Positions 1,432 through 15,510 of a DNA stretch of 64,000 nucleotides are shown here, in pieces. Positions within the stretch are counted from its first letter, which is position 1, and the number at the start of each line of letters is the position of its first letter. Made by a program: the position numbers and the translations under genes. Source of the stretch: a virus (lineage: Duplodnaviria; Caudoviricetes); the IMG/VR virus record IMGVR_UViG_2791354756_000002, positions 288-64,287 of that record, one strand, 5' to 3'. The notes under the pieces are model-generated. The model was given only the letters and a program-made list of their open reading frames with translations, was not told where the DNA came from and ran no database searches.

Positions 1432-2655
1432 CTACTCCTTAAAGTACTTTTCCCACTTACGTTCAATATTTTTCGCTATATTGTACGCAAGCACACATGG
1501 TACGGCGTTACCAATAATTTTATAAGCGTCACTAGAAGATACAGACACATTCTTGCCTGTTTTCGCGAGTATGAATTGATACTCGTCCGGGAACGTTTGT
1601 ATTCTGGCGCACTCCCTCACAGTGAGCCTTCTCTCTGGAAGGCCAGCGGCGAGCTCGGCGTCGTGCTTGCCACCATGCTCCTTGGATAGCCTGCGGTACT
1701 CGATATTCCCGTGGTGCTCAGACCTGATTGTAGGCCCAACGGAATCAAGCTTTACTTCCGTTTGCCCCTGGCAATGAGCCCCCATGTATTTTGCCTTTGA
1801 GTATTTTTCCTGTGACTTATCAGTGGCTACCTCTGGCTCGACGAGACCCGTGAAGGCGTCAGAGCAAGTAACATAATCCAGTAAGCCGGGCCCGTGAGTC
1901 GGTAATGGGTAAGGATCATATTCCTCTGGAATATCCTTGCTCAACAGCGCCTCCATCGCTCCGGCGGTCAGGGCGTTCTTTCTGAAGCCAAAGAATATGA
2001 CCCTCTCTCTTGATTGGGGAACGCCGTAATCAGCGGCACGCAGAACTTTCGCTGGAACAACCAAATACCCACCATCGCCAGCCTCAGCGAAATCACGCTC
2101 AATAATTTCTTTCACATCCTCCAGGTTGGTAAGCCCCTTTACATTTTCAGCTATAAACAATTTAGGGCAAGTTATCGTAATAACTTCCCTCATCCAAATA
2201 TACAATTTCCCCCTACTCTCAGTGGATGGCTCACCGGCGTCAAGCGTTCCCCCAAGATGGCTTTTTTTAGATTTGAATCCTAATCTTTTACCAGCCACTG
2301 AGAAATCCTGACATGGAAAACCACCCGTTACGACATCAATACCTTCTGGAAACACAAAATCCCCAGTATTATGTTTTCTTACCAAGTCTACTATACTACC
2401 TAGATGATACACATCATCAGCGTTATTTATTCGACAGCTAAAAAAAGAAACCCATGCCGCTTTCGCGTCAGGTCTTATATCGTTAGCAAAGACAGTCCTA
2501 AATTTTGTTGGTGATAATGTTACCCAATCACCATTATTATTAGCCACCCAGTCTGCGTGCTCCTCAAGATTAATAGATTTTTTCAAGCACGAAAAACCGC
2601 CTTCAAAACCTATATCCATGCCACCACATCCAGAAAATAATGACAGTACTTTCAA
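1432..2655 (-). CDS. dcm: DNA cytosine-5 methyltransferase (resembles M.BepI, CGCG-type, from memory)
   Basis: Motifs LFSGCGG (I), GGFPCQDFS (IV), ENV (VI), QSRERV (VIII), YKIIGNAV (X); TRD segment PTIRSEHHGNIEYRRLS; TTG start. Confidence 0.95.
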   Translation of the reverse strand: MKVLSLFSGCGGMDIGFEGGFSCLKKSINLEEHADWVANNNGDWVTLSPTKFRTVFANDIRPDAKAAWVSFFSCRINNADDVYHLGSIVDLVRKHNTGDFVFPEGIDVVTGGFPCQDFSVAGKRLGFKSKKSHLGGTLDAGEPSTESRGKLYIWMREVITITCPKLFIAENVKGLTNLEDVKEIIERDFAEAGDGGYLVVPAKVLRAADYGVPQSRERVIFFGFRKNALTAGAMEALLSKDIPEEYDPYPLPTHGPGLLDYVTCSDAFTGLVEPEVATDKSQEKYSKAKYMGAHCQGQTEVKLDSVGPTIRSEHHGNIEYRRLSKEHGGKHDAELAAGLPERRLTVRECARIQTFPDEYQFILAKTGKNVSVSSSDAYKIIGNAVPCVLAYNIAKNIERKWEKYFKE

Positions 2656-2775
2656 CCTGTCCTCCCCTCATACCAAATATTAGCTTAAGCAAGTCTAGCG
2701 TCCACAAGTCCTACCTACAAAAACGCCAAATTCTACACCATTTCTACCCCACCTTCGGCTAAAAAACAAATGTTT

Positions 2776-2818
2776 GCGTAAGCGGCAGCAGGGCTACCAA
2801 CCCTGCTGCCGCTTACGC
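2776..2818 (-). terminator. Intrinsic terminator closing the micro-ORF array
   Basis: Perfect 18-bp stem GCGTAAGCGGCAGCAGGG/CCCTGCTGCCGCTTACGC with T-rich tails on both strands. Confidence 0.85.
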
Positions 2819-2841
2819 TTTCTACCCTACCGAGTTACCAA

Positions 2842-3309
2842 TCATAATAATAACCGCATCGTCTTGGGCCTCCTTAATGCCCAACTCAGCTGCGACGTAC
2901 CACTCCTACCCTAGTAACCCATGTCTTCTTGGCATCTTCCAACCTCCTCGCGAATAGTATAGTTTCCAGATTAACTTACTAGGTTAATAACGGTTGGCCG
3001 TACGGCATCCACTAACCTCCTTCGTTTGATTGTTTCTCACTCTTGTCCCCAAACCACGTCTATCCTAATAACTGCGCTTGGCGCATGTTATCCTTCCTCC
3101 GTCATTTGATTGTTTCCTCATCCTGCACCCTAGCCACCTTATCTTAATAACTGCGACTGGTGCCGCATAATATCTTCCCTCCTTTGGTTAAATTGTTTTC
3201 CTCTATCCCCTAGCCTAATAACCGCGACCTAAGCCGCATTGACATCACCTCCTATTTATTAAAGTATGCCTTCCAATTTCCTACAGCCTAATAATAGCCA
3301 TATAGGCAT
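2842..3309 (-). repeat. Tandem array of seven SD-led micro-ORFs (5-16 aa) at 70-82 bp period
   Basis: 3259-3309 MPIWLLLGCRKLEGIL; 3210-3239 MRLRSRLLG; 3139-3168 MRHQSQLLR; 3060-3086 MRQAQLLG; 2979-3008 MPYGQPLLT; 2906-2935 MPRRHGLLG; 2842-2859 MRLLL. Each is preceded by GGAGG. Confidence 0.8.
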
Positions 3310-3353
3310 CAGCATCACCTCCTTGCCATAATGCTATATTTCCCTTCTTACTA

Positions 3354-3488
3354 CCTTATAACACATTTGGTGGCATTTTGACGAAAATTTATAGATACAC
3401 CTACCGTTTATTTTTCATATCCTTATAACATAAATGACCCCCAAAAATTTAATAATAGATAAGTCTATTCTTTCATATCCTTATAACA
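3354..3488 (-). promoter_or_regulatory. Three tandem copies of the phage promoter motif TGTTATAAGG(ATATG)
   Basis: CCTTATAACA on + at 3354, 3421 and 3479, directly upstream of the micro-ORF array. Confidence 0.75.
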
Positions 3489-3510
3489 CAAAATCGCCAA
3501 ATTAACGAAA

Positions 3511-3557
3511 AAATAAAAGCCCCACAACGTTTATTAAACTTTGTGGGGCTTTTATTT
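3511..3557 (-). terminator. Intrinsic terminator
   Basis: 17-bp stem AAATAAAAGCCCCACAA/TTGTGGGGCTTTTATTT right after the 3564 stop. Confidence 0.8.
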
Positions 3558-3563
3558 TAATTT

Positions 3564-3929
3564 TTAGAAACTTATGCTATCAACATATTTATCTATACCA
3601 TCTCCTTTGTATTCATGATGTACAGTAAAATATAGCTTACATTCTGGTCTATTAGCAACACAAAAGTTCCACTTTGTTCCATCCTTCTCAATATATGTAA
3701 TATCTATATACTCCATACTATTATCTGGTGACCAGTAAGTATATACAGAATTGTGAAATGACCTCGGAGCACCCAATTTATCGAGTATCTCCTGTTTTGT
3801 AGTCTTCCCCTGAATAATAGTCATCTCTGCCACTTTAACAGGTTTAATTTCTACAACCTTAGCTTGTCTCTGAGGTAAGCAAGACACCTGAAGCATAAGG
3901 GTTGCAATAAGTGCCACAAATAATCTCAT
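3564..3929 (-). CDS. Putative lipoprotein, SmpA/BamE-like
   Basis: Start reassigned to ATG 3929 (SD AAAGGAGG). Signal-like MRLFVALIATLMLQVSC, then IIQGKTTKQEILDKLGAP (SmpA/OmlA-type motif). Confidence 0.55.
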   Translation of the reverse strand: MRLFVALIATLMLQVSCLPQRQAKVVEIKPVKVAEMTIIQGKTTKQEILDKLGAPRSFHNSVYTYWSPDNSMEYIDITYIEKDGTKWNFCVANRPECKLYFTVHHEYKGDGIDKYVDSISF

Positions 3930-3942
3930 AGTATTCCCTCCT

Positions 3943-4914
3943 TTATTCTTTCTCCATCCCAACCAGCATGGGATGGAGCCACTTCAGCACAAACGTCCTA
4001 TCCCCCTTCCTCGGACCAGTCCAGAATCCATGCCAATGTCCGCGCCTAACGTGTGCCCGTGGGCTTGCGTGCGTACCACCCGCGTACTCCGGCTTTTGGG
4101 CGACAGCATCGCGCAGGGCTTGGCCCAGGCTGCGTCCTACCTCCCAAACCGTCACCTTCTGCGCTGGAAACAAGGCCATACCGCCCTTTACCTTTTTGGG
4201 CTTGGGGCGAACAGGAGATTTGCCGGGCTGGCGAAGGTTGTCTATTTCCGGTTTGTCGGAGCAGAGATACAATACCAGAGCCACAAGGCTTTGCACATCC
4301 TTTTTGTAATGCTCATCGGGCGGAATCTCCGGCATACCCTTTTGTCTCATATACTCGACCGCAGGGGCATTCAGCTTTGCCAGCGTCTCGCTGACGCTCA
4401 AGCCTTCTTCCAAAGGTATGACGATCTGCACAGGCTCATACTCTTCCAAGAACAGCACGAAGCGCAGCTCCAACAACTGTGTGCCGTAATCAAAATCGTA
4501 GAAGACAAGCGTCCCCACAACGCCAGGCAGTGATTCGAAAAACCAGTCTGGCAACTGAATGTAGATAGCGTACTCCGGCAGCCTGACTACCACATCGATG
4601 GGTATGGGCTTATCGGTGTCTGTGTCCTTCAACGCCACCAGCAGGTTGTCGTCAAAGTGGTAAACGCCCTGGCTGTACCGCCAGGCTATCAGACCAGTAG
4701 TGACGCCAGCGAAGCGTACATCCTCATCTGTCGGAGGATCACCAATCTCTCCCATTTTTATGAGGCTCTTCGCCCATACGGAGATAGGTATAAACACGAT
4801 CTCCGGAGCGCTCCAATATGCCGGGCGCAAGGAGAGCACATGGTTCACATACTTGTTCAGTACCGGGACGCGCTTGCCCAGTTCGGCAAGCTTTCGCGAC
4901 GGGGGAAAATCCAT
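3943..4914 (-). CDS. AcrVA2/FinQ-family protein (candidate anti-CRISPR)
   Basis: 323 aa; AWRYSQGVYHFD, RLPEYAIYI, LYLCSDKPEI, WEVGRSLG and PRAHVRRGHWHGFWTG match in order the AcrVA2 motifs as I recall them (AWRNTLGIYQLD, NLPDWCVYV, LWLCVAEPDI, YQIGERLG, RPHIRRGHWHGYWQG). Confidence 0.75.
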   Translation of the reverse strand: MDFPPSRKLAELGKRVPVLNKYVNHVLSLRPAYWSAPEIVFIPISVWAKSLIKMGEIGDPPTDEDVRFAGVTTGLIAWRYSQGVYHFDDNLLVALKDTDTDKPIPIDVVVRLPEYAIYIQLPDWFFESLPGVVGTLVFYDFDYGTQLLELRFVLFLEEYEPVQIVIPLEEGLSVSETLAKLNAPAVEYMRQKGMPEIPPDEHYKKDVQSLVALVLYLCSDKPEIDNLRQPGKSPVRPKPKKVKGGMALFPAQKVTVWEVGRSLGQALRDAVAQKPEYAGGTHASPRAHVRRGHWHGFWTGPRKGDRTFVLKWLHPMLVGMEKE

Positions 4915-5025: not shown

Positions 5026-5675
5026 GTGCGGGGTGTTCCTGGCTGGTAACGTCCAGGCTCCATTGAAGCGAGCCAATGCAAGTACTGCTGTATTTCCTAG
5101 TTATTACATCCCGGGTACCGTCCCGGGCTCCATTGGCTTCCATAGGCTAAAAATAGCCGCACCCTGCACAGCATTTACCTATTGACACTCACCTTCCCCT
5201 CAATCTATAAAATCCTGTGCAGGGTGTTTCCTGGCGGGTAACCGCCAGGCTCCATTGAAGCTAGTACATTTTTTTGTAACTTGAACGGCTATACAGCTTT
5301 TCCCGGCAGCCATGCTGTCGGGCTCCATTGAAGCAATATTGTGATTGCTACAGGCTAAAAATAGCCGCGCCCTGCACGACCTTTGACTCCTACACCTCGT
5401 AGTCAGCGTCACACTAAAGGGTATAGCTTGCTTGCGAGCTATACCCTTTACTTACCAATATCAAATGCTGTATAGACATAGCTGTGCAGGGTGTTCCCGA
5501 TGGGTGACCATCGGGCCCCATTGAAGCAATATTGTTATTAATATAGGCTAAAAATAGCCGCACCCTGCACGACCTTTACTTATCACCGCCAGATAATGTA
5601 TAGTCGTAGTTGTGCAAGGTGCTCGCAATGAAGGTTGGTCGAGTCCTTCGTTGTTACATGGGCAACACCCTGCAC
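5026..5675 (+). CRISPR. Four small-RNA cassettes; three carry type I-G(I-U)-like CRISPR repeat mimics (orphan mini-arrays or solitary repeats)
   Basis: Cassettes 5026-5169, 5217-5377, 5484-5570 and 5612-5675, each closed by GTGCAGGGTG/CACCCTGCAC. Repeats of 36-37 nt ending CCATTGAAGC at 5033-5069, 5226-5261, about 5298-5334 and 5491-5527, plus a degenerate copy at about 5103-5139. Spacers about 33-37 nt. No cas genes. Confidence 0.75.
5182..5211 (+). promoter_or_regulatory. Sigma70-type promoter of cassette 2
   Basis: TTGACA-18-TATAAA ending 6 nt before the cassette; TTTACT-18-TATAG(A/T) precedes cassettes 3 and 4. Confidence 0.7.
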
Positions 5676-5889
5676 ACCTCTACTTCTCCTTAAGTAGTAT
5701 CACGTCAAAGGGGCGCAGCCTGCTTGCAAGCCGCGCCCCTTGTCTGTATATTATCTGTACACTTGCTTTACACTTAACCCCGGCAAGTAGCGTTGAGCTC
5801 CCTGCACCATGCGCCCTTGGATGCGGGGAGCTTATTTGCACGAAATACGCCAGTGTATCGGCGGCTTCGAGCACAGGCCCCCTTTCCTG

Positions 5890-6129
5890 CTAATGTGGCG
5901 GCGGGAGAGGGGGTCTGTTTTTGTTTGCTGTTGAAGGTAAAAATACGTGTAAGCTTTTGTGTAGCACACTTGGAGAATCAGCATCAGGATATCTAGAAGC
6001 TTTCTCATATTTATCGGCAGCCTGGAGCAATCCATACAACTCGGAAAGTTTTCCCTCCAATCCGTAACATAAGTCGTTATTTCTTTCTTCTGCTGCAAGA
6101 TTATCCCAGGCTGCCGAACACTGTTCCAT
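5890..6129 (-). CDS. Hypothetical protein (79 aa)
   Basis: Start reassigned to MEQCS at 6129, downstream of the 6173-6219 hairpin. Confidence 0.45.
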   Translation of the reverse strand: MEQCSAAWDNLAAEERNNDLCYGLEGKLSELYGLLQAADKYEKASRYPDADSPSVLHKSLHVFLPSTANKNRPPLPPPH

Positions 6130-6172
6130 GGCATCACCGTACCCCCTTTGCCCAGATAACCTAAAAACAAGC

Positions 6173-6219
6173 GGTGCGCCAGTAGCGTGGGTACTGTTTC
6201 CCCACACCACTGGCGCACC
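6173..6219. terminator. Hairpin; terminator or attenuator
   Basis: GGTGCGCCAGT/ACTGGCGCACC stem with T runs on both sides. Confidence 0.6.
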
Positions 6220-6549: not shown

Positions 6550-7242
6550 CTACAGCAACTTCATCAGCTGCTTATCATATGTATCCATGAATCCATCTGG
6601 CCAATCATCGATGTGACCATCACTGTCGATATTCAGACGCTTTCCCTCAAAGATAAGAATCACGTCATCCTGGGCGATCTTCCCATCGTGAACATTGACT
6701 CGTACCTGACCAAGGCTGGCGGGACTGTGGGTGGTAACCACAATGTTTAGCCCGGCGACGGCCTTCTCGCACAGGAAGTCAAACAGATTTGCCTGTGCGT
6801 CTCCGCTGAGGAATGCGTCCGGCTGCTCAAGGTACAGGGTGTATCCTGCGGGAAGCATATCAGCAGCCATAACCACAGGCAGAACCTGTGTGATTTCGGC
6901 GGGCATATACAGGGGTATATTCAGCACTCCATCCATCCCGTACTTCATACTCGTCACGATGTCATCGTGACCTTCCGCAACTATACGCACAGGATTAAGA
7001 GGTTGAAGGATTTCTGTCACAAGGTGTTCATATCTTTCGGCACCATACTCAAGCAGATACCACGGGAATGACAGCTCCGTGATGGTCACAAACGGATTGT
7101 CGTCGTCGAAGTCAGCGGGTTTGAAATACTCATGCCCGCCGAAATCCCGAGCCTCCATAATGATGGCCGATGTCCGTGGATGCTCCCACCACCTGGGATG
7201 TAGCCTCGGAAGCCATCTGCCGGTGATAATTTCAAGAGACAT
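6550..7242 (-). CDS. C-terminal half of an AAA_21/DUF3696-type ABC ATPase, lacking Walker A
   Basis: Start reassigned to MSLEII at 7242. ITQVLPVVMAA...LYLEQPDAFLSGDAQANL...VVTTHSP...DWPDGFMD; no GxxxxGK. Confidence 0.65.
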   Translation of the reverse strand: MSLEIITGRWLPRLHPRWWEHPRTSAIIMEARDFGGHEYFKPADFDDDNPFVTITELSFPWYLLEYGAERYEHLVTEILQPLNPVRIVAEGHDDIVTSMKYGMDGVLNIPLYMPAEITQVLPVVMAADMLPAGYTLYLEQPDAFLSGDAQANLFDFLCEKAVAGLNIVVTTHSPASLGQVRVNVHDGKIAQDDVILIFEGKRLNIDSDGHIDDWPDGFMDTYDKQLMKLL

Positions 7243-7249
7243 ATATTGC

Positions 7250-7906
7250 TTACCCCATGAGGATAGCCAGCTGCTTCTCCTGGGTATCGAAGAAGTCTTC
7301 AGGCCATTCCTCTCCAAGATCTACAGGAACAAGGGCGTTGTCCGTGCGCATGCATACCGTAAAGTTAATCAATCCGTTCTTTTGCGCGATGCGGAAACTG
7401 TTCATCAGGCACATGCTGTAGGTTTCCACAACTACCATAACGCCGGTTGACGCCACGTTCGCCAGGAAATTCCCAAGCTCTGCCTGCCCGACCTCACTGA
7501 GAAAAGCGTCCGGGTGCTCAAGCTTGAGCACAGATCCGGGCTTGGCCATCAGTCCGGCTACCAGAACGGGTATCACCTGCCAGAGACCAGGATTTCCGTA
7601 AGCGCCTGCCGGAGCGTCATTCACCAGCAGAGACACCATGGAACCGTCTCCGGCAAGGCTTGTGTCGACCACAACATTCTTGCCAATGATCTTCTCCACC
7701 CACTCGTTGACGATATCGCGCATGGCTCTCAGGCCGATTTCCATAAACCAGGGAGCGTACTCGCCCATCTTGCCGACACTGACAATTTCCGGGGACACTG
7801 GGAAGCAGTCCACACCGTACATGCGGACAGGTCCAATGACCACTGCGGGCTCAACAGTACGGATGCCGTTGCTGGGTTCTGCGGAAAGGAATACGGAGTT
7901 GCTCAT
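7250..7906 (-). CDS. C-terminal half of an AAA_21/DUF3696-type ABC ATPase, lacking Walker A (paralogue)
   Basis: GLWQVIPVLVAGLMAKPGSVLKLEHPDAFLSEVGQAELG...VVETYS...WPEDFFDTQEKQL. Confidence 0.65.
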   Translation of the reverse strand: MSNSVFLSAEPSNGIRTVEPAVVIGPVRMYGVDCFPVSPEIVSVGKMGEYAPWFMEIGLRAMRDIVNEWVEKIIGKNVVVDTSLAGDGSMVSLLVNDAPAGAYGNPGLWQVIPVLVAGLMAKPGSVLKLEHPDAFLSEVGQAELGNFLANVASTGVMVVVETYSMCLMNSFRIAQKNGLINFTVCMRTDNALVPVDLGEEWPEDFFDTQEKQLAILMG

Positions 7907-8601: not shown

Positions 8602-9150
8602 CTATAACACCTCCCGATAATTTTTGGCTAATGCCATCCTCTTTCTTAACATACTGCGATTAACGCATTTTTTGCACCCGTCCGCGAACGCGGCGAACAT
8701 CGCCAAAAAATACGCGTCGCATATATCGCTGGAGCATGTGTCACCCAGTCCTTCATCGTGTGCGTATTTACGCACCAGGTCCTTGCTTGCCTGGCCATTA
8801 CCTGTGGCAAAAGCCTTGTTTGTGGTTGGTGGGACTATATATATGATAGAGGCTATGTCGCTGAGAGCGTTTTTCAGTATGCCACCGTACTCAGCGAGGT
8901 CGTACGCCCTGTGCGCGGAGCCATACGAGTATCCCTCGTAGCCGCATACGCACCTGGCATTACCAATTTTGTTGAGCACAAAATCGACAAGTCCTGATAC
9001 TTGCACCCTGTACCGCGCAAAGCCCTTTTCCTTCCCCACAAACGTCCTGCCGTCCACTGCCCCTACAAGCTTGGCATTATTGTCTAAAATAGCAATGCCA
9101 GTATTGGTAATGGACGGGTCCACGCCAAGGTAATAGCTAGTACTGGACAA
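8602..9150 (-). CDS. ruvC: RuvC-like Holliday junction resolvase
   Basis: LGVDPSITNTGIAI, YEGYSYG, PTTNKAFATGNGQASKD, DICDAYFLA; probable TTG start at 9150. Confidence 0.88.
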   Translation of the reverse strand: MSSTSYYLGVDPSITNTGIAILDNNAKLVGAVDGRTFVGKEKGFARYRVQVSGLVDFVLNKIGNARCVCGYEGYSYGSAHRAYDLAEYGGILKNALSDIASIIYIVPPTTNKAFATGNGQASKDLVRKYAHDEGLGDTCSSDICDAYFLAMFAAFADGCKKCVNRSMLRKRMALAKNYREVL

Positions 9151-9349
9151 ACGCTCCTTCCTTGAAGTACCCGCGAGCTCCGCAAGTGAAGCAGTACCAG
9201 CCGCCTTCCGTGTCATCCTGATACCAGGCAGATGTTCCACACTTTCTGCACCTTTCTTCCGGTACTGCGCTTCTTGCCTTCTTCTCGATGTATCTTCTTC
9301 TAATATTATCGATGTGTCTCTTTCGTTCTCCTTTACTTTGATTCATCAA
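9137..9349 (-). CDS. Zinc-ribbon protein
   Basis: CRKC...CFTC with a basic N-terminus. Confidence 0.6.
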   Translation of the reverse strand: MMNQSKGERKRHIDNIRRRYIEKKARSAVPEERCRKCGTSAWYQDDTEGGWYCFTCGARGYFKEGAFVQY

Positions 9350-9425: not shown

Positions 9426-10580
9426 TTAGGACGACAAACAGTCAAGAAATCTTCTTCTAAACTCTTCTATCCCAACAGAGTCATCTTTATAAAGTTTTGC
9501 ACATTCTATATGCTTGTTGTCCAAACCGTATTTGAATATCATACCATCTTCATTGAAATATCCGTCTTTTATCCTTACTGCTATCAAAAGCTTTGCAATT
9601 CTGTTGGCGAACTTGTCCTGAATCATTCTTGCATATGCCACGTATCCCTGCATAGCCATCATAAACTTTGTTGTGTAGACTTCCTCCTCATCTGCTATTC
9701 CACGAGGAAGTTCTCCGGTATCAGCAAAATACTTTTTTGCTTCCTCTGCCGTATTACCAACTACGGCATTCCAGAGTATGGCTCTTATGCGATCTCGCTT
9801 GACGCGACTTATATTCGCTACCTCGTTCAGCACGATACCCAGGAACTCCTGGTGTCTGGTCGGATGGTTGTTGCGAATACTGCTCCAGGAGTGCGTTCGA
9901 AACTCTCCCCTGGCAGCCGTTGTTTTCACGAACTCCTTGTACTCGTTGATAAAGTCGTTGCCTGGTTCCTCCTTGCAGAACAACACCAGATTGTCCGAAT
10001 ACCTGTAATACGTGTGTTCCACAGGGCAGTGATCCCTCAGCCACCTCACGATAGGCCGGTCAAAGTATCTGTTGCCCACGATGTTTGCCAGCGCCGGTGA
10101 GCACGCGCTGCCCTGCTGCAAGGACGAGAATCTTCCGTTCCAGATAGTACAATAGCTGGCTATCAACCTGGCGCCCCTGGCTATCATGCCGCAATCCATC
10201 AGCGCCTTCTCGATATGGGCATACGAAATGTTGTCGTAATAATGACGTATGTCCGTCTTGATCATAATAGCGCTGCCCTGACACACGGCAAGCTTTTCGG
10301 CCACGTTCACTCCGGGACGATAGGCGATGGCTACCTCGTTATACGGAAGGTCGTCCATCATAATATTAAACACCATGCCAAGTCGCCGCTGGATAACCGA
10401 CAACGGAGACTTGCTCGCGTACACGGTACGCTTGCCCACTTTGATCTTCCTGCGCAGGTCGTCCCGGAATTTCCTGGCGTAGGCCATGTGGTTGTTTTTA
10501 ATATGCAGCAGACTGCCCAACTCAGAGAAGTTATCAATGAGCTTCATCATCTGCGATGCTTCAGTACTCCTGAGCTTCAT
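9426..10580 (-). CDS. Retron-like reverse transcriptase with variant YSDN active site
   Basis: AIAYRPG (domain 2), KTDIRHYYDNI (3), LQQGSACSPALANI (4), YYRYSDNL (5; codons tat tcg gac aat), QEFLGIVLN (7) and a thumb; no maturase or endonuclease domain. Confidence 0.88.
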   Translation of the reverse strand: MKLRSTEASQMMKLIDNFSELGSLLHIKNNHMAYARKFRDDLRRKIKVGKRTVYASKSPLSVIQRRLGMVFNIMMDDLPYNEVAIAYRPGVNVAEKLAVCQGSAIMIKTDIRHYYDNISYAHIEKALMDCGMIARGARLIASYCTIWNGRFSSLQQGSACSPALANIVGNRYFDRPIVRWLRDHCPVEHTYYRYSDNLVLFCKEEPGNDFINEYKEFVKTTAARGEFRTHSWSSIRNNHPTRHQEFLGIVLNEVANISRVKRDRIRAILWNAVVGNTAEEAKKYFADTGELPRGIADEEEVYTTKFMMAMQGYVAYARMIQDKFANRIAKLLIAVRIKDGYFNEDGMIFKYGLDNKHIECAKLYKDDSVGIEEFRRRFLDCLSS

Positions 10581-14651: not shown

Positions 14652-15510
14652 CAGGTTTGATGCTATGCCGCGACGGAGGCGGAGCGAGGCTGTGCGAGCG
14701 TAGCGGAGGAGTGGGACTGCATTTCCACATAATGGTGGGGTTACCCCACCGTTGCTGTGAAGCAACATGAAACCTGATCTGAAAATTAAACCTCAACGAA
14801 TTGTGGTCCGATGCATGGTGCGTCGAGTCGCCTGTACGGCGTAGCCGGTAAGGCGTTCGACGAGACATGTATTACCATTGTGTGGTGGGGTTACCCCACC
14901 GTTGCTAAAGCACAACATGAGACCACAGAAAACCGTCGGTTACAGGGTTTGATGCGAAGGCTGCGATTCTATCTTCGTAGGGCTTGTCCCGGAGAAGTTA
15001 GAATGGCAGCGTGCAGCATTGCCAGATAATGGCGCGGTTACCGCGCCGTTGTTTTACAACCTGAAACCCTGTGTGCAAAGTCAGATACAATGAGTCGGGT
15101 GAACACTAACAGATTCGCAGGATCTGTTAGTGTTCGGCTCGACCGCATGGTATTAGCCATGAGTGGCGTGGTTGCCACGCCGCTGCTCGAAAGCAACATG
15201 AGACTTTGCGATTTTTGTCAAAAGGTCAGATACGTTGGTTACGCGGATGAGGGCCAGGAGGCGTAGCATCCTGGGCCTCTACGCGTCCGACGGTATTACC
15301 AATAAGTGACGTGGTTACCACGTCGTTACTGATGCGTAACATATGGCCTTTTGATTTTTTATCGATATTGAAGGTCAGATACGTTTTATGCACGCGGACA
15401 TGTGGCTCAAAAGCGTAGCGCATTGAGCCGCGTGTCCGCGTGGAGGGAAGTATTACCAATAGATGACGTGGTTGCCACGCCGTTACTGATGTGTAACATA
15501 GGACCTTCAA
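14652..15510 (-). ncRNA. Tandem array of six retron-like (a1-msr-msd-a2) structured non-coding units
   Basis: Units 14652-14776, 14802-14927, 14942-15072, 15075-15209, 15218-15354 and 15368-15510. Each is closed by its own 7-11 bp inverted repeat and holds two conserved covarying hairpins plus one long variable hairpin. Confidence 0.8.

Follow-up and report, generated by a model that had tools for sequence, protein, structure and literature searches.

A phage locus of individually closed cassettes with type I-G CRISPR repeats as a candidate RNA-based anti-CRISPR locus

Four closed cassettes between two minus-strand genes

The stretch of DNA analysed here (the window; 64,000 nucleotides (nt), positions 288 to 64,287 of the record) belongs to the IMG/VR virus entry IMGVR_UViG_2791354756_000002, which comprises 64,287 bases, is estimated to be ~36% complete and represents part of the genome of a large chicken-gut phage. 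At positions 5026-5675 it harbors four small cassettes (C1 to C4), three of which carry repeats resembling those of type I-G CRISPR arrays, and which are considered here as a candidate anti-CRISPR RNA locus. The cassettes lie in an interval of ~1 kb between two minus-strand genes, and no convincing open reading frames (ORFs) were found in this interval.

An earlier note, made from the letters of this DNA alone, had described four cassettes bounded by shared arms, and this description was confirmed. Every cassette starts with the 5' arm GTGCAGGGTG and ends with the 3' arm CACCCTGCAC, which together form a 10-bp closing stem. With at most one mismatch allowed, the arm motif was found at 15 sites in the window compared to 4.0 expected, and none of 100 shuffled sequences reached 15. 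Nine of the 15 sites are located within 5026-5807, and eight of these make four pairs in the correct orientation. The note had further argued that G-U pairs in the arms favor RNA from the plus strand. One G-U pair each is indeed present in C1 and C2, but the arms of C4 contain one A-C mismatch (G-C in relatives), which would be a G-U pair on the minus strand. The plus strand is therefore assigned from the orientation of the repeats and the position of the promoters, not from G-U pairs.

The minimal unit is C3 (5484-5570, plus strand; arms 5484-5493 and 5561-5570), in which the 5' arm is followed by a single repeat (R3, 5491-5527), a 17-nt A+T-rich tail (5528-5544), a hairpin of the sequence GGCTA-AAAA-TAGCC (5546-5559), one G and the 3' arm. 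C2 (5217-5377, plus strand; arms 5217-5226 and 5368-5377) is a module of the C3 type (repeat R2b, 5297-5334; 17-nt tail, 5335-5351; hairpin, 5353-5366) preceded by an extra repeat (R2a, 5225-5261) and a 35-nt spacer (5262-5296). C1 (5026-5169, plus strand; arms 5026-5035 and 5160-5169) comprises a repeat (R1a, 5033-5069), a 33-nt spacer (5070-5102) and a decayed repeat (R1b, ~5103-5139), which leads directly into the constant hairpin (5145-5158). In each of these cassettes the initial two to three bases of the first repeat double as the end of the 5' arm, and the distance from the last repeat handle to the 3' arm is 33 nt in C2 and C3 alike. C4 (5612-5675, plus strand) has the same arms and one internal 10-bp hairpin, but no repeat. 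Thus, the constant hairpin of C1-C3 and the 17-nt segments preceding it in C2 and C3 were found as the note had claimed, while the repeat-spacer-repeat order that it ascribed to C1 and C2 is intact in C2 only.

All four 5' arms begin 6-8 nt past a -10-like hexamer, which is itself preceded by a -35-like hexamer at a distance of 18 nt. These promoter-like pairs on the plus strand are P1 (4990-5019; TTGACT and TATGGC, arm 7 nt downstream), P2 (5182-5211; TTGACA and TATAAA, arm 6 nt downstream), P3 (5448-5477; TTTACT and TATAGA, arm 7 nt downstream) and P4 (5575-5604; TTTACT and TATAGT, arm 8 nt downstream). Recognisable sigma70 promoters had been proposed for C2 to C4; the hexamer pairs are present there, and C1 has one as well, but a strict promoter scan flagged only P4, left P1 unflagged and returned a regional promoter count at chance level. 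Since the four promoter regions are paralogous to one another, they do not count as separate lines of evidence.

Compared to shuffled sequences, folding of the plus strand gave z values of -4.0 for C1, -5.7 for C2, -6.3 for C3 and -2.7 for C4. Weak terminator-like hairpins were detected after C2 and C4 only. The first is a 17-bp hairpin with a weak U tract (5415-5450, plus strand; inverted repeat I6) and the second a G+C-rich 16-bp hairpin (5708-5741, plus strand; inverted repeat I8); both were recovered by folding and are likely terminators. Because of this distribution, C1-C2 and C3-C4 may also be co-transcribed by read-through. In folds of such read-through transcripts the arms can nest, the 5' arm of C1 pairing with the 3' arm of C2 and the 5' arm of C3 with the 3' arm of C4.

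Relation of the repeats to type I-G arrays of bacterial hosts

To relate the repeats to bacterial arrays, 185,579 species genomes were searched for two CCATTGAAGC copies at array spacing, which yielded at least 120 stretches. Almost all of the matches listed represent arrays that share a single repeat family, whose 36-37-nt repeats consist of TTCC, a 7-8-bp stem that varies by organism, GGCYCC and the handle ATTGAAGC. The hairpin of the host repeats is supported by covariation, as 87% of the cells are paired compared to 65% after shuffling, with 131 double changes compared to 40. Csb2, the signature protein of type I-G, was searched for with the profile TIGR02165 (cas5_6_GSU0054), which scored above its cut-off in five of five genomes with arrays, whereas none of 14 controls reached it. 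The distance between array and Csb2 is at most 10 kb in three of these five genomes, and for 37 of 95 arrays a Csb2-like ORF is located within the same 8-kb locus. Based on this association, the family to which the phage repeats belong is assigned to type I-G (formerly I-U).

A covariance model was then built from 75 distinct aligned host repeats, with host repeats alone being used. In the window, this model matched R1a, R2a, R2b and R3 over their full length with 25.6-37.9 bits (E values from 1.7e-5 to 3.2e-9). All four full matches are on the plus strand within C1-C3, and, apart from a partial match to R1b, nothing else was found in the 64 kb. The four stems differ in sequence and all of them pair, in agreement with the compensatory changes reported in the earlier note. 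Its assignment of the repeats to a I-G-like type is thereby supported. In R1b only model positions 6-33 are matched (10.9 bits) and the handle reads ATTGGCTT. The handle ATTGAAGC is intact on each repeat that precedes a spacer or tail and is lost only in R1b, which has no tail. The best match in Rfam was CRISPR-DR16 with 22.4 bits and an E value of 0.031, below the gathering score of 35.

In type I-G, Csb2 cuts 4 nt 3' of the repeat hairpin, which gives rise to a handle of 8 nt, and the enzyme remains attached to the hairpin (10.1101/2022.08.08.503147). The succession of stem, CYCC (4 nt) and ATTGAAGC in the phage repeats corresponds, at the level of sequence, to the layout of this published cut. 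Two further observations concern the host repeats. A I-G repeat sub-type starting with GT(C/T)A(C/T)ATCC instead of TTTCC was found in Desulfovibrionaceae genomes (L078, L197, L198 and L207), and the decayed phage repeat at 5103-5139 resembles this sub-type. Besides, ~25 of 301 genomes contain a lone isolated match to GGCYCCATTGAAGC, and most of these matches do not form the hairpin.

Relatives, other viral units and the neighboring AcrVA2-type gene

Relatives of the locus were obtained as contigs from four public runs belonging to four studies. Most of the public runs in which parts of this locus occur are metagenomes of the chicken gut, and no RNA run is listed among them; one run labelled RNA-Seq is probably DNA. 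Arms and repeats are retained in the relatives, as is the constant hairpin (GGCTA-AAAA-TAGCC). At the imperfect arm positions 5030, 5369 and 5617, the base found in relatives restores a Watson-Crick pair, and in one relative the -10 hexamer of P3 reads TATAAA (5475 G>A). In relatives from two studies the tail is swapped for ACTAGGAGTAATCCCAGCTT, with its surroundings kept and a total length of 34 instead of 33 nt. One relative contig (run X5) contains a counterpart of the C2 spacer: 19 of the 20 positions nearest to the handle are identical, whereas identity falls to ~5 among the last 15. A similar gradient is seen between the two 17-nt tails of C2 and C3, which agree at 11 of the first 12 and two of the last five positions. 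In other relative contigs the cassettes are joined inside repeats, so that units have been lost, fused or reordered, and the element that persists is the single-repeat unit. Searches by exact pattern recovered no relatives of the cassettes in IMG/VR, and nothing similar was found in INPHARED; four pattern matches in metagenomes were rejected as chance matches within coding regions.

The earlier note had judged the packaging into a closing stem unusual. IMG/VR contains further I-G-type mini-arrays of two to five repeats and many solitary repeats, and 23 non-redundant, solitary, hairpin-forming I-G-type repeats were surveyed for a closing stem formed by the 16 nt directly before the repeat and the 90 nt that follow the handle. 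Three of the 23 (L253, L232 and L267) have a perfect closing stem of 9-11 bp abutting the repeat start, and in L259 a perfect 8-bp core is part of a longer imperfect closing stem. In controls with shifts of 20, 40 or 60 nt or with reversed downstream sequence, a stem of at least 9 bp was obtained in one of 92 trials. The repeats of these four units match the host-repeat model with E values from 4e-9 to 6e-7, while their arms are related neither to each other nor to those of the phage. Judged from these predicted stems, the closed design recurs in at least four unrelated viral contigs. The tails measure 39 nt in L253, 22 nt in L232, 8 nt in L267 and 52 nt in L259, which weakened a strict rule of a pseudo-spacer of spacer length, and this rule was dropped. 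The L232 unit is followed by a clear terminator. In a separate contig (L174, IMGVR_UViG_3300036780_000199), three I-G mini-arrays surround one gene on the minus strand (~2160-3650 of the reversed locus); the stems of their repeats differ within this one locus, as they do in the phage studied here.

Divergent from C1, a gene on the minus strand (3943-4914) encodes a protein of 323 amino acids (aa) that belongs to the AcrVA2 family and also matches phrog_6160. Residues 77-316 match the sequence of AcrVA2 (PDB 7CI1) with an E value of 5.3e-13. The C-terminal H-x-R..H residues, which AcrVA2 requires for activity, are kept, as H-V-R-R-G-H aligns to H286, R288 and H291 of AcrVA2. Homologues of AcrVA2 are common on mobile elements of bacteria that lack Cas12a, where their targets are unknown. 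A homologue of the flanking gene (34% identity, E 7e-40) is present in the L232 contig (4537-5484, plus strand), ~0.7 kb from the closed unit of that contig (~6134-6212, minus strand). AcrVA2-family genes are hence found ~0.1-0.7 kb from closed I-G units in two unrelated viral contigs, which may hint that this branch of AcrVA2 acts on a type I-G component. The pairing with closed units thus provides a testable hint at a target of these homologues. The more distant AcrVA2-like loci L125-L127 have neither cassettes nor I-G repeats. An assignment of the neighboring gene to the CasPR family was rejected, as CasPRs are CapR/AP2 proteins unrelated to AcrVA2.

Other genes of the window are those of a phage and include a family-A DNA polymerase, helicases, NrdD and a large RNA-polymerase-like protein, whose nearest cultured relative is found in Salmonella phage Arash (181 kb; 34% amino-acid identity). 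Csb2 and Csb1 were not found in the 64-kb record, which covers ~36% of the phage genome, and a search for known RNA families revealed no transfer RNA, transfer-messenger RNA or other known RNA. Directly downstream of the cassettes, a fifth promoter-like pair (5724-5752, plus strand) precedes a structured stretch with a hairpin at 5796-5832; this stretch (5724-5925, plus strand) runs into a strong terminator that includes a T run (5873-5918), contains a 41-aa ORF that has no ribosome-binding site, and possibly represents a further small RNA. On the minus strand, there may be an ORF for a helical product of 80 aa (~5890-6130), which has a G-rich ribosome-binding site and is overlapped in another frame by a 128-aa ORF (5832-6218) that has no PHROG match. 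The minus-strand genes at 6550-7906, 8602-9240, 9426-10580 and 1432-2655 resemble an island of anti-defence and DNA-metabolism functions, with two tandem proteins matching phrog_21420 (one with a DUF3696 tail), a RuvC-like resolvase, a reverse transcriptase (RVT_1) and a C5 cytosine methyltransferase. A second array of ~6 structured non-coding units is located at 14652-15510 on the minus strand, downstream of a 64-aa ORF. Its units have conserved paired hairpins, each with its own closing inverted repeat, and closing stems thus seem to be habitual for the small RNAs of this phage.

Interpretation of the locus

Given that the repeats belong to the I-G family, that they lie in a phage record which yielded neither Csb2 nor Csb1 and that an AcrVA2-type gene is adjacent, an anti-CRISPR or Cas-hijacking RNA, as the earlier note had suggested, is the best reading of the locus; the targets which that note considered, cas promoters and rival phages, were not found in the searches described below. 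We lean towards a phage anti-CRISPR RNA locus that is aimed at type I-G and would act via Csb2-bound mimics of CRISPR RNAs (crRNAs), and regard this as somewhat probable. From the sequence features described above we infer the following course. Each cassette would be transcribed from its own promoter, with the first base of the closing stem as the start, and each repeat cassette would display one or two authentic I-G repeat hairpins. Host Csb2, a Cas5-Cas6 fusion, would bind the hairpin and cut 4 nt downstream, so that the 8-nt handle AUUGAAGC remains on the downstream piece and Csb2 is retained on the hairpin. Owing to the pairing between its 5' and 3' ends, the RNA would stay together after the cut, and the closing stem would hold the Csb2-bound hairpin beside the 3' end of the handle-bearing piece, that is, at the place of the 3' repeat of a normal crRNA. 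A single repeat would thus yield a whole crRNA look-alike of handle, 33-nt filler and hairpin. Such a mimic may take up Csb2, Cas7 and Cas8g, compete with the host crRNAs and in this way inhibit immunity, while the neighboring AcrVA2-type protein would act in parallel.

Several observations weigh against this reading. C4, for which an antisense RNA to the handle and a decayed unit were both considered, has the same arms without a repeat and is left unexplained by it, and the promoter calls are at consensus level and were made on paralogous cassettes. No sampled host repeat shares its stem with any of the phage repeats. As the other closed units have tails of 8-52 nt, the 33-nt filler may be a coincidence. 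According to the folds, part of the handle pairs with the tail in two units, C2 and L232, which could hinder loading of Cas7 and would better fit a pure Csb2 sponge. Finally, a leader of the RacrIF1 type is almost absent, and the published mechanism of RNA anti-CRISPRs (Racrs) is thus not simply transferable.

The likeness to Racrs (Camara-Wilpert et al., Nature 2023, PMC10651486) lies in a viral repeat mimic that is preceded by a promoter-like sequence, away from cas genes and beside an acr gene, and, by analogy, in the predicted binding and cutting by a host Cas6-type enzyme and the competition with crRNAs. Type I-G is not mentioned in the main text of that paper, and its passages on stems and structure, as far as they were available, concern the repeat hairpin only. 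RacrIF1 is described in these passages as acting via a leader upstream of its repeat and without a 5' handle; here, in contrast, the upstream part amounts to seven paired bases, and the handle-bearing part is kept and would be tied back by the closing stem. Unlike in Racrs, several units with differing stems are present, together with two repeat-spacer-repeat units. With Cracrs (Liu et al., bioRxiv 10.1101/2024.10.29.618823) the cassettes share the compact combination of repeat and short spacer, the multiplexing, the pairing with an acr gene and an intact handle followed by a variable, guide-like segment. Cracrs were however reported for types V-A, I-B, I-C, I-E and I-F and not for I-G, and they are defined by a match to CreR/CreA or to a cas promoter, neither of which was found for the phage segments in the searches described below. 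The putative promoter of each unit, the constant filler hairpin and the closing stem further set the phage cassettes apart; the word 'stem' is absent from the text of the preprint, and the closing stem, which recurs in other viruses, is indeed unusual when compared to that text and to the Racr passages mentioned above. With host I-G arrays, which are processed by Csb2 (Shangguan et al., NAR 2022), the locus shares the repeat family and the order of hairpin, 4 nt and 8-nt handle ATTGAAGC. It differs from them in lacking an array and a leader, in the individual closure of its units and in the stems, which are different in every repeat; in addition, the record yielded neither Csb2 nor Csb1. The locus stands out by the I-G subtype, by closed single-repeat units that each have a putative promoter and by the recurrence of the closed design in unrelated viruses.

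Which role the segments behind the handles play was addressed by target searches. Host I-G spacers have a median length of 36 nt (5-95% range, 34-39 nt). No target of the spacer-like segments beyond chance was found in the window itself, the spacers gave chance-level matches only in INPHARED (50,697 phage records), and IMG/VR contained no protospacer even with every sixth base left free. A Cracr would call for at least nine matches proximal to the protospacer-adjacent motif (PAM) in a cas or creT promoter, or for a likeness to a host CreR/CreA; neither ~0.97 Mb of I-G host loci nor the Desulfovibrionaceae I-G loci contained a PAM-proximal match above chance. Matches in a Ca. Mailhella genome were rejected as coding or AT-rich chance matches. 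In the opposite direction, 1,945 spacers of I-G arrays were compared to the window, and no match exceeded chance. The searches with spacers and 17-mers, and the comparison of repeats with host arrays, both of which the note had proposed as ways to targets and host, were thus unsuccessful. The 5' flank TTACATCC of R1b is common to the repeat of a metagenome-assembled genome of Ca. Mailhella from chicken caecum, and R1b also resembles other Desulfovibrionaceae I-G repeats; Ca. Mailhella or the Desulfovibrionaceae may be suggested as hosts, as a lead only.

These results bear on the alternative that the cassettes are guide-bearing, Cracr-like regulators, whose variable segments, as short or partly matching guides, would be taken up by the I-G Cascade of the host and, without any cleavage, keep it bound to a host promoter, for example of the cas operon, of a CRISPR-guarding toxin or of another defence system, with the closing stem supplying the 3' hairpin. 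The exchange of the tail in relatives of two studies while repeat, hairpin, arms and length are kept is in line with a guide, as are the handle-proximal conservation of the C2 spacer in run X5, the corresponding gradient in the two tails and the retention of handles only where a segment follows. In addition, viral crRNA-like RNAs (crlRNAs) with short spacers, arrayed and paired with acr genes, have been described for types V-A, I-B, I-C, I-E and I-F (10.1101/2024.10.29.618823). However, the window, the ~0.97 Mb of I-G loci, the Desulfovibrionaceae loci and Ca. Mailhella contain no PAM-proximal match above chance, and the literature searched contains no CreR/CreA for type I-G. The 8-nt tail of L267 (other closed units reach 52 nt) cannot guide, handle and tail are partly paired in C2 and L232, and conservation biased to the 5' side could stem from local structure or recombination instead of seed pairing. 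We consider this alternative doubtful. A combined version appears rather unlikely. In it, closed single-repeat units would be circularly permuted crRNAs: the closing stem would rejoin the Csb2-bound hairpin and the 3' end of the handle piece after the cut, one repeat would give a full guide, and a complete but shortened I-G Cascade loaded with it would be placed by the 17-20-nt variable segment on a host cas or defence promoter, while the AcrVA2-type protein would remove a Cas mRNA co-translationally.

That C1 and C2 are ordinary mini-CRISPR arrays, whose crRNAs are directed against competing phages or plasmids and are merely stabilised by the stems, would account for their repeat-spacer-repeat order and for spacers whose lengths (33 and 35 nt) fall at the lower edge of those in hosts, and I-G mini-arrays of two to five repeats do exist on other IMG/VR contigs. 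This is nevertheless improbable, as searches of the 50,697 phage records and of IMG/VR yielded no protospacer, relatives keep the single-repeat unit without a full spacer, the second repeat of C1 is decayed and C3 and C4 have no full spacer at all; differing stems, closing stems and the constant hairpin are further differences from virus-borne mini-arrays. Even less probable, and indeed very unlikely, is a function unrelated to CRISPR, with the arms serving as DNA operators or recombination sites, or with phage small RNAs whose likeness to repeats is inherited baggage. Around P2, a 17-nt inverted repeat (I5; 94%) is indeed formed by the 3' arm of C1 together with the 5' arm of C2, the nested pairings of the read-through folds equal the closing stems in stability, the phage has a second non-coding RNA array with units closed by their own inverted repeats, and C4 has arms without a repeat. 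Baggage, however, would not be expected to retain four full-length I-G matches with compensatory stems and an intact handle, and the joints in relatives fall within repeats and not at the arms. The closed units of other viruses combine different arms with the same kind of repeat, which suggests pairing within the RNA and not a DNA motif bound by a protein.

The literature searched yielded no anti-CRISPR directed at type I-G, and the locus would be the first RNA-based anti-CRISPR candidate for this type. When compared to the descriptions of Racrs and Cracrs, the new feature of the design would be a closing stem that lets one repeat act as a whole crRNA. If the stem works as proposed, it would allow compact expression of type I guides from a single repeat, which may be useful for I-G genome editing. 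If the combined version considered above were true, it would constitute a two-pronged shut-off of type I-G immunity that recurs in unrelated phages.

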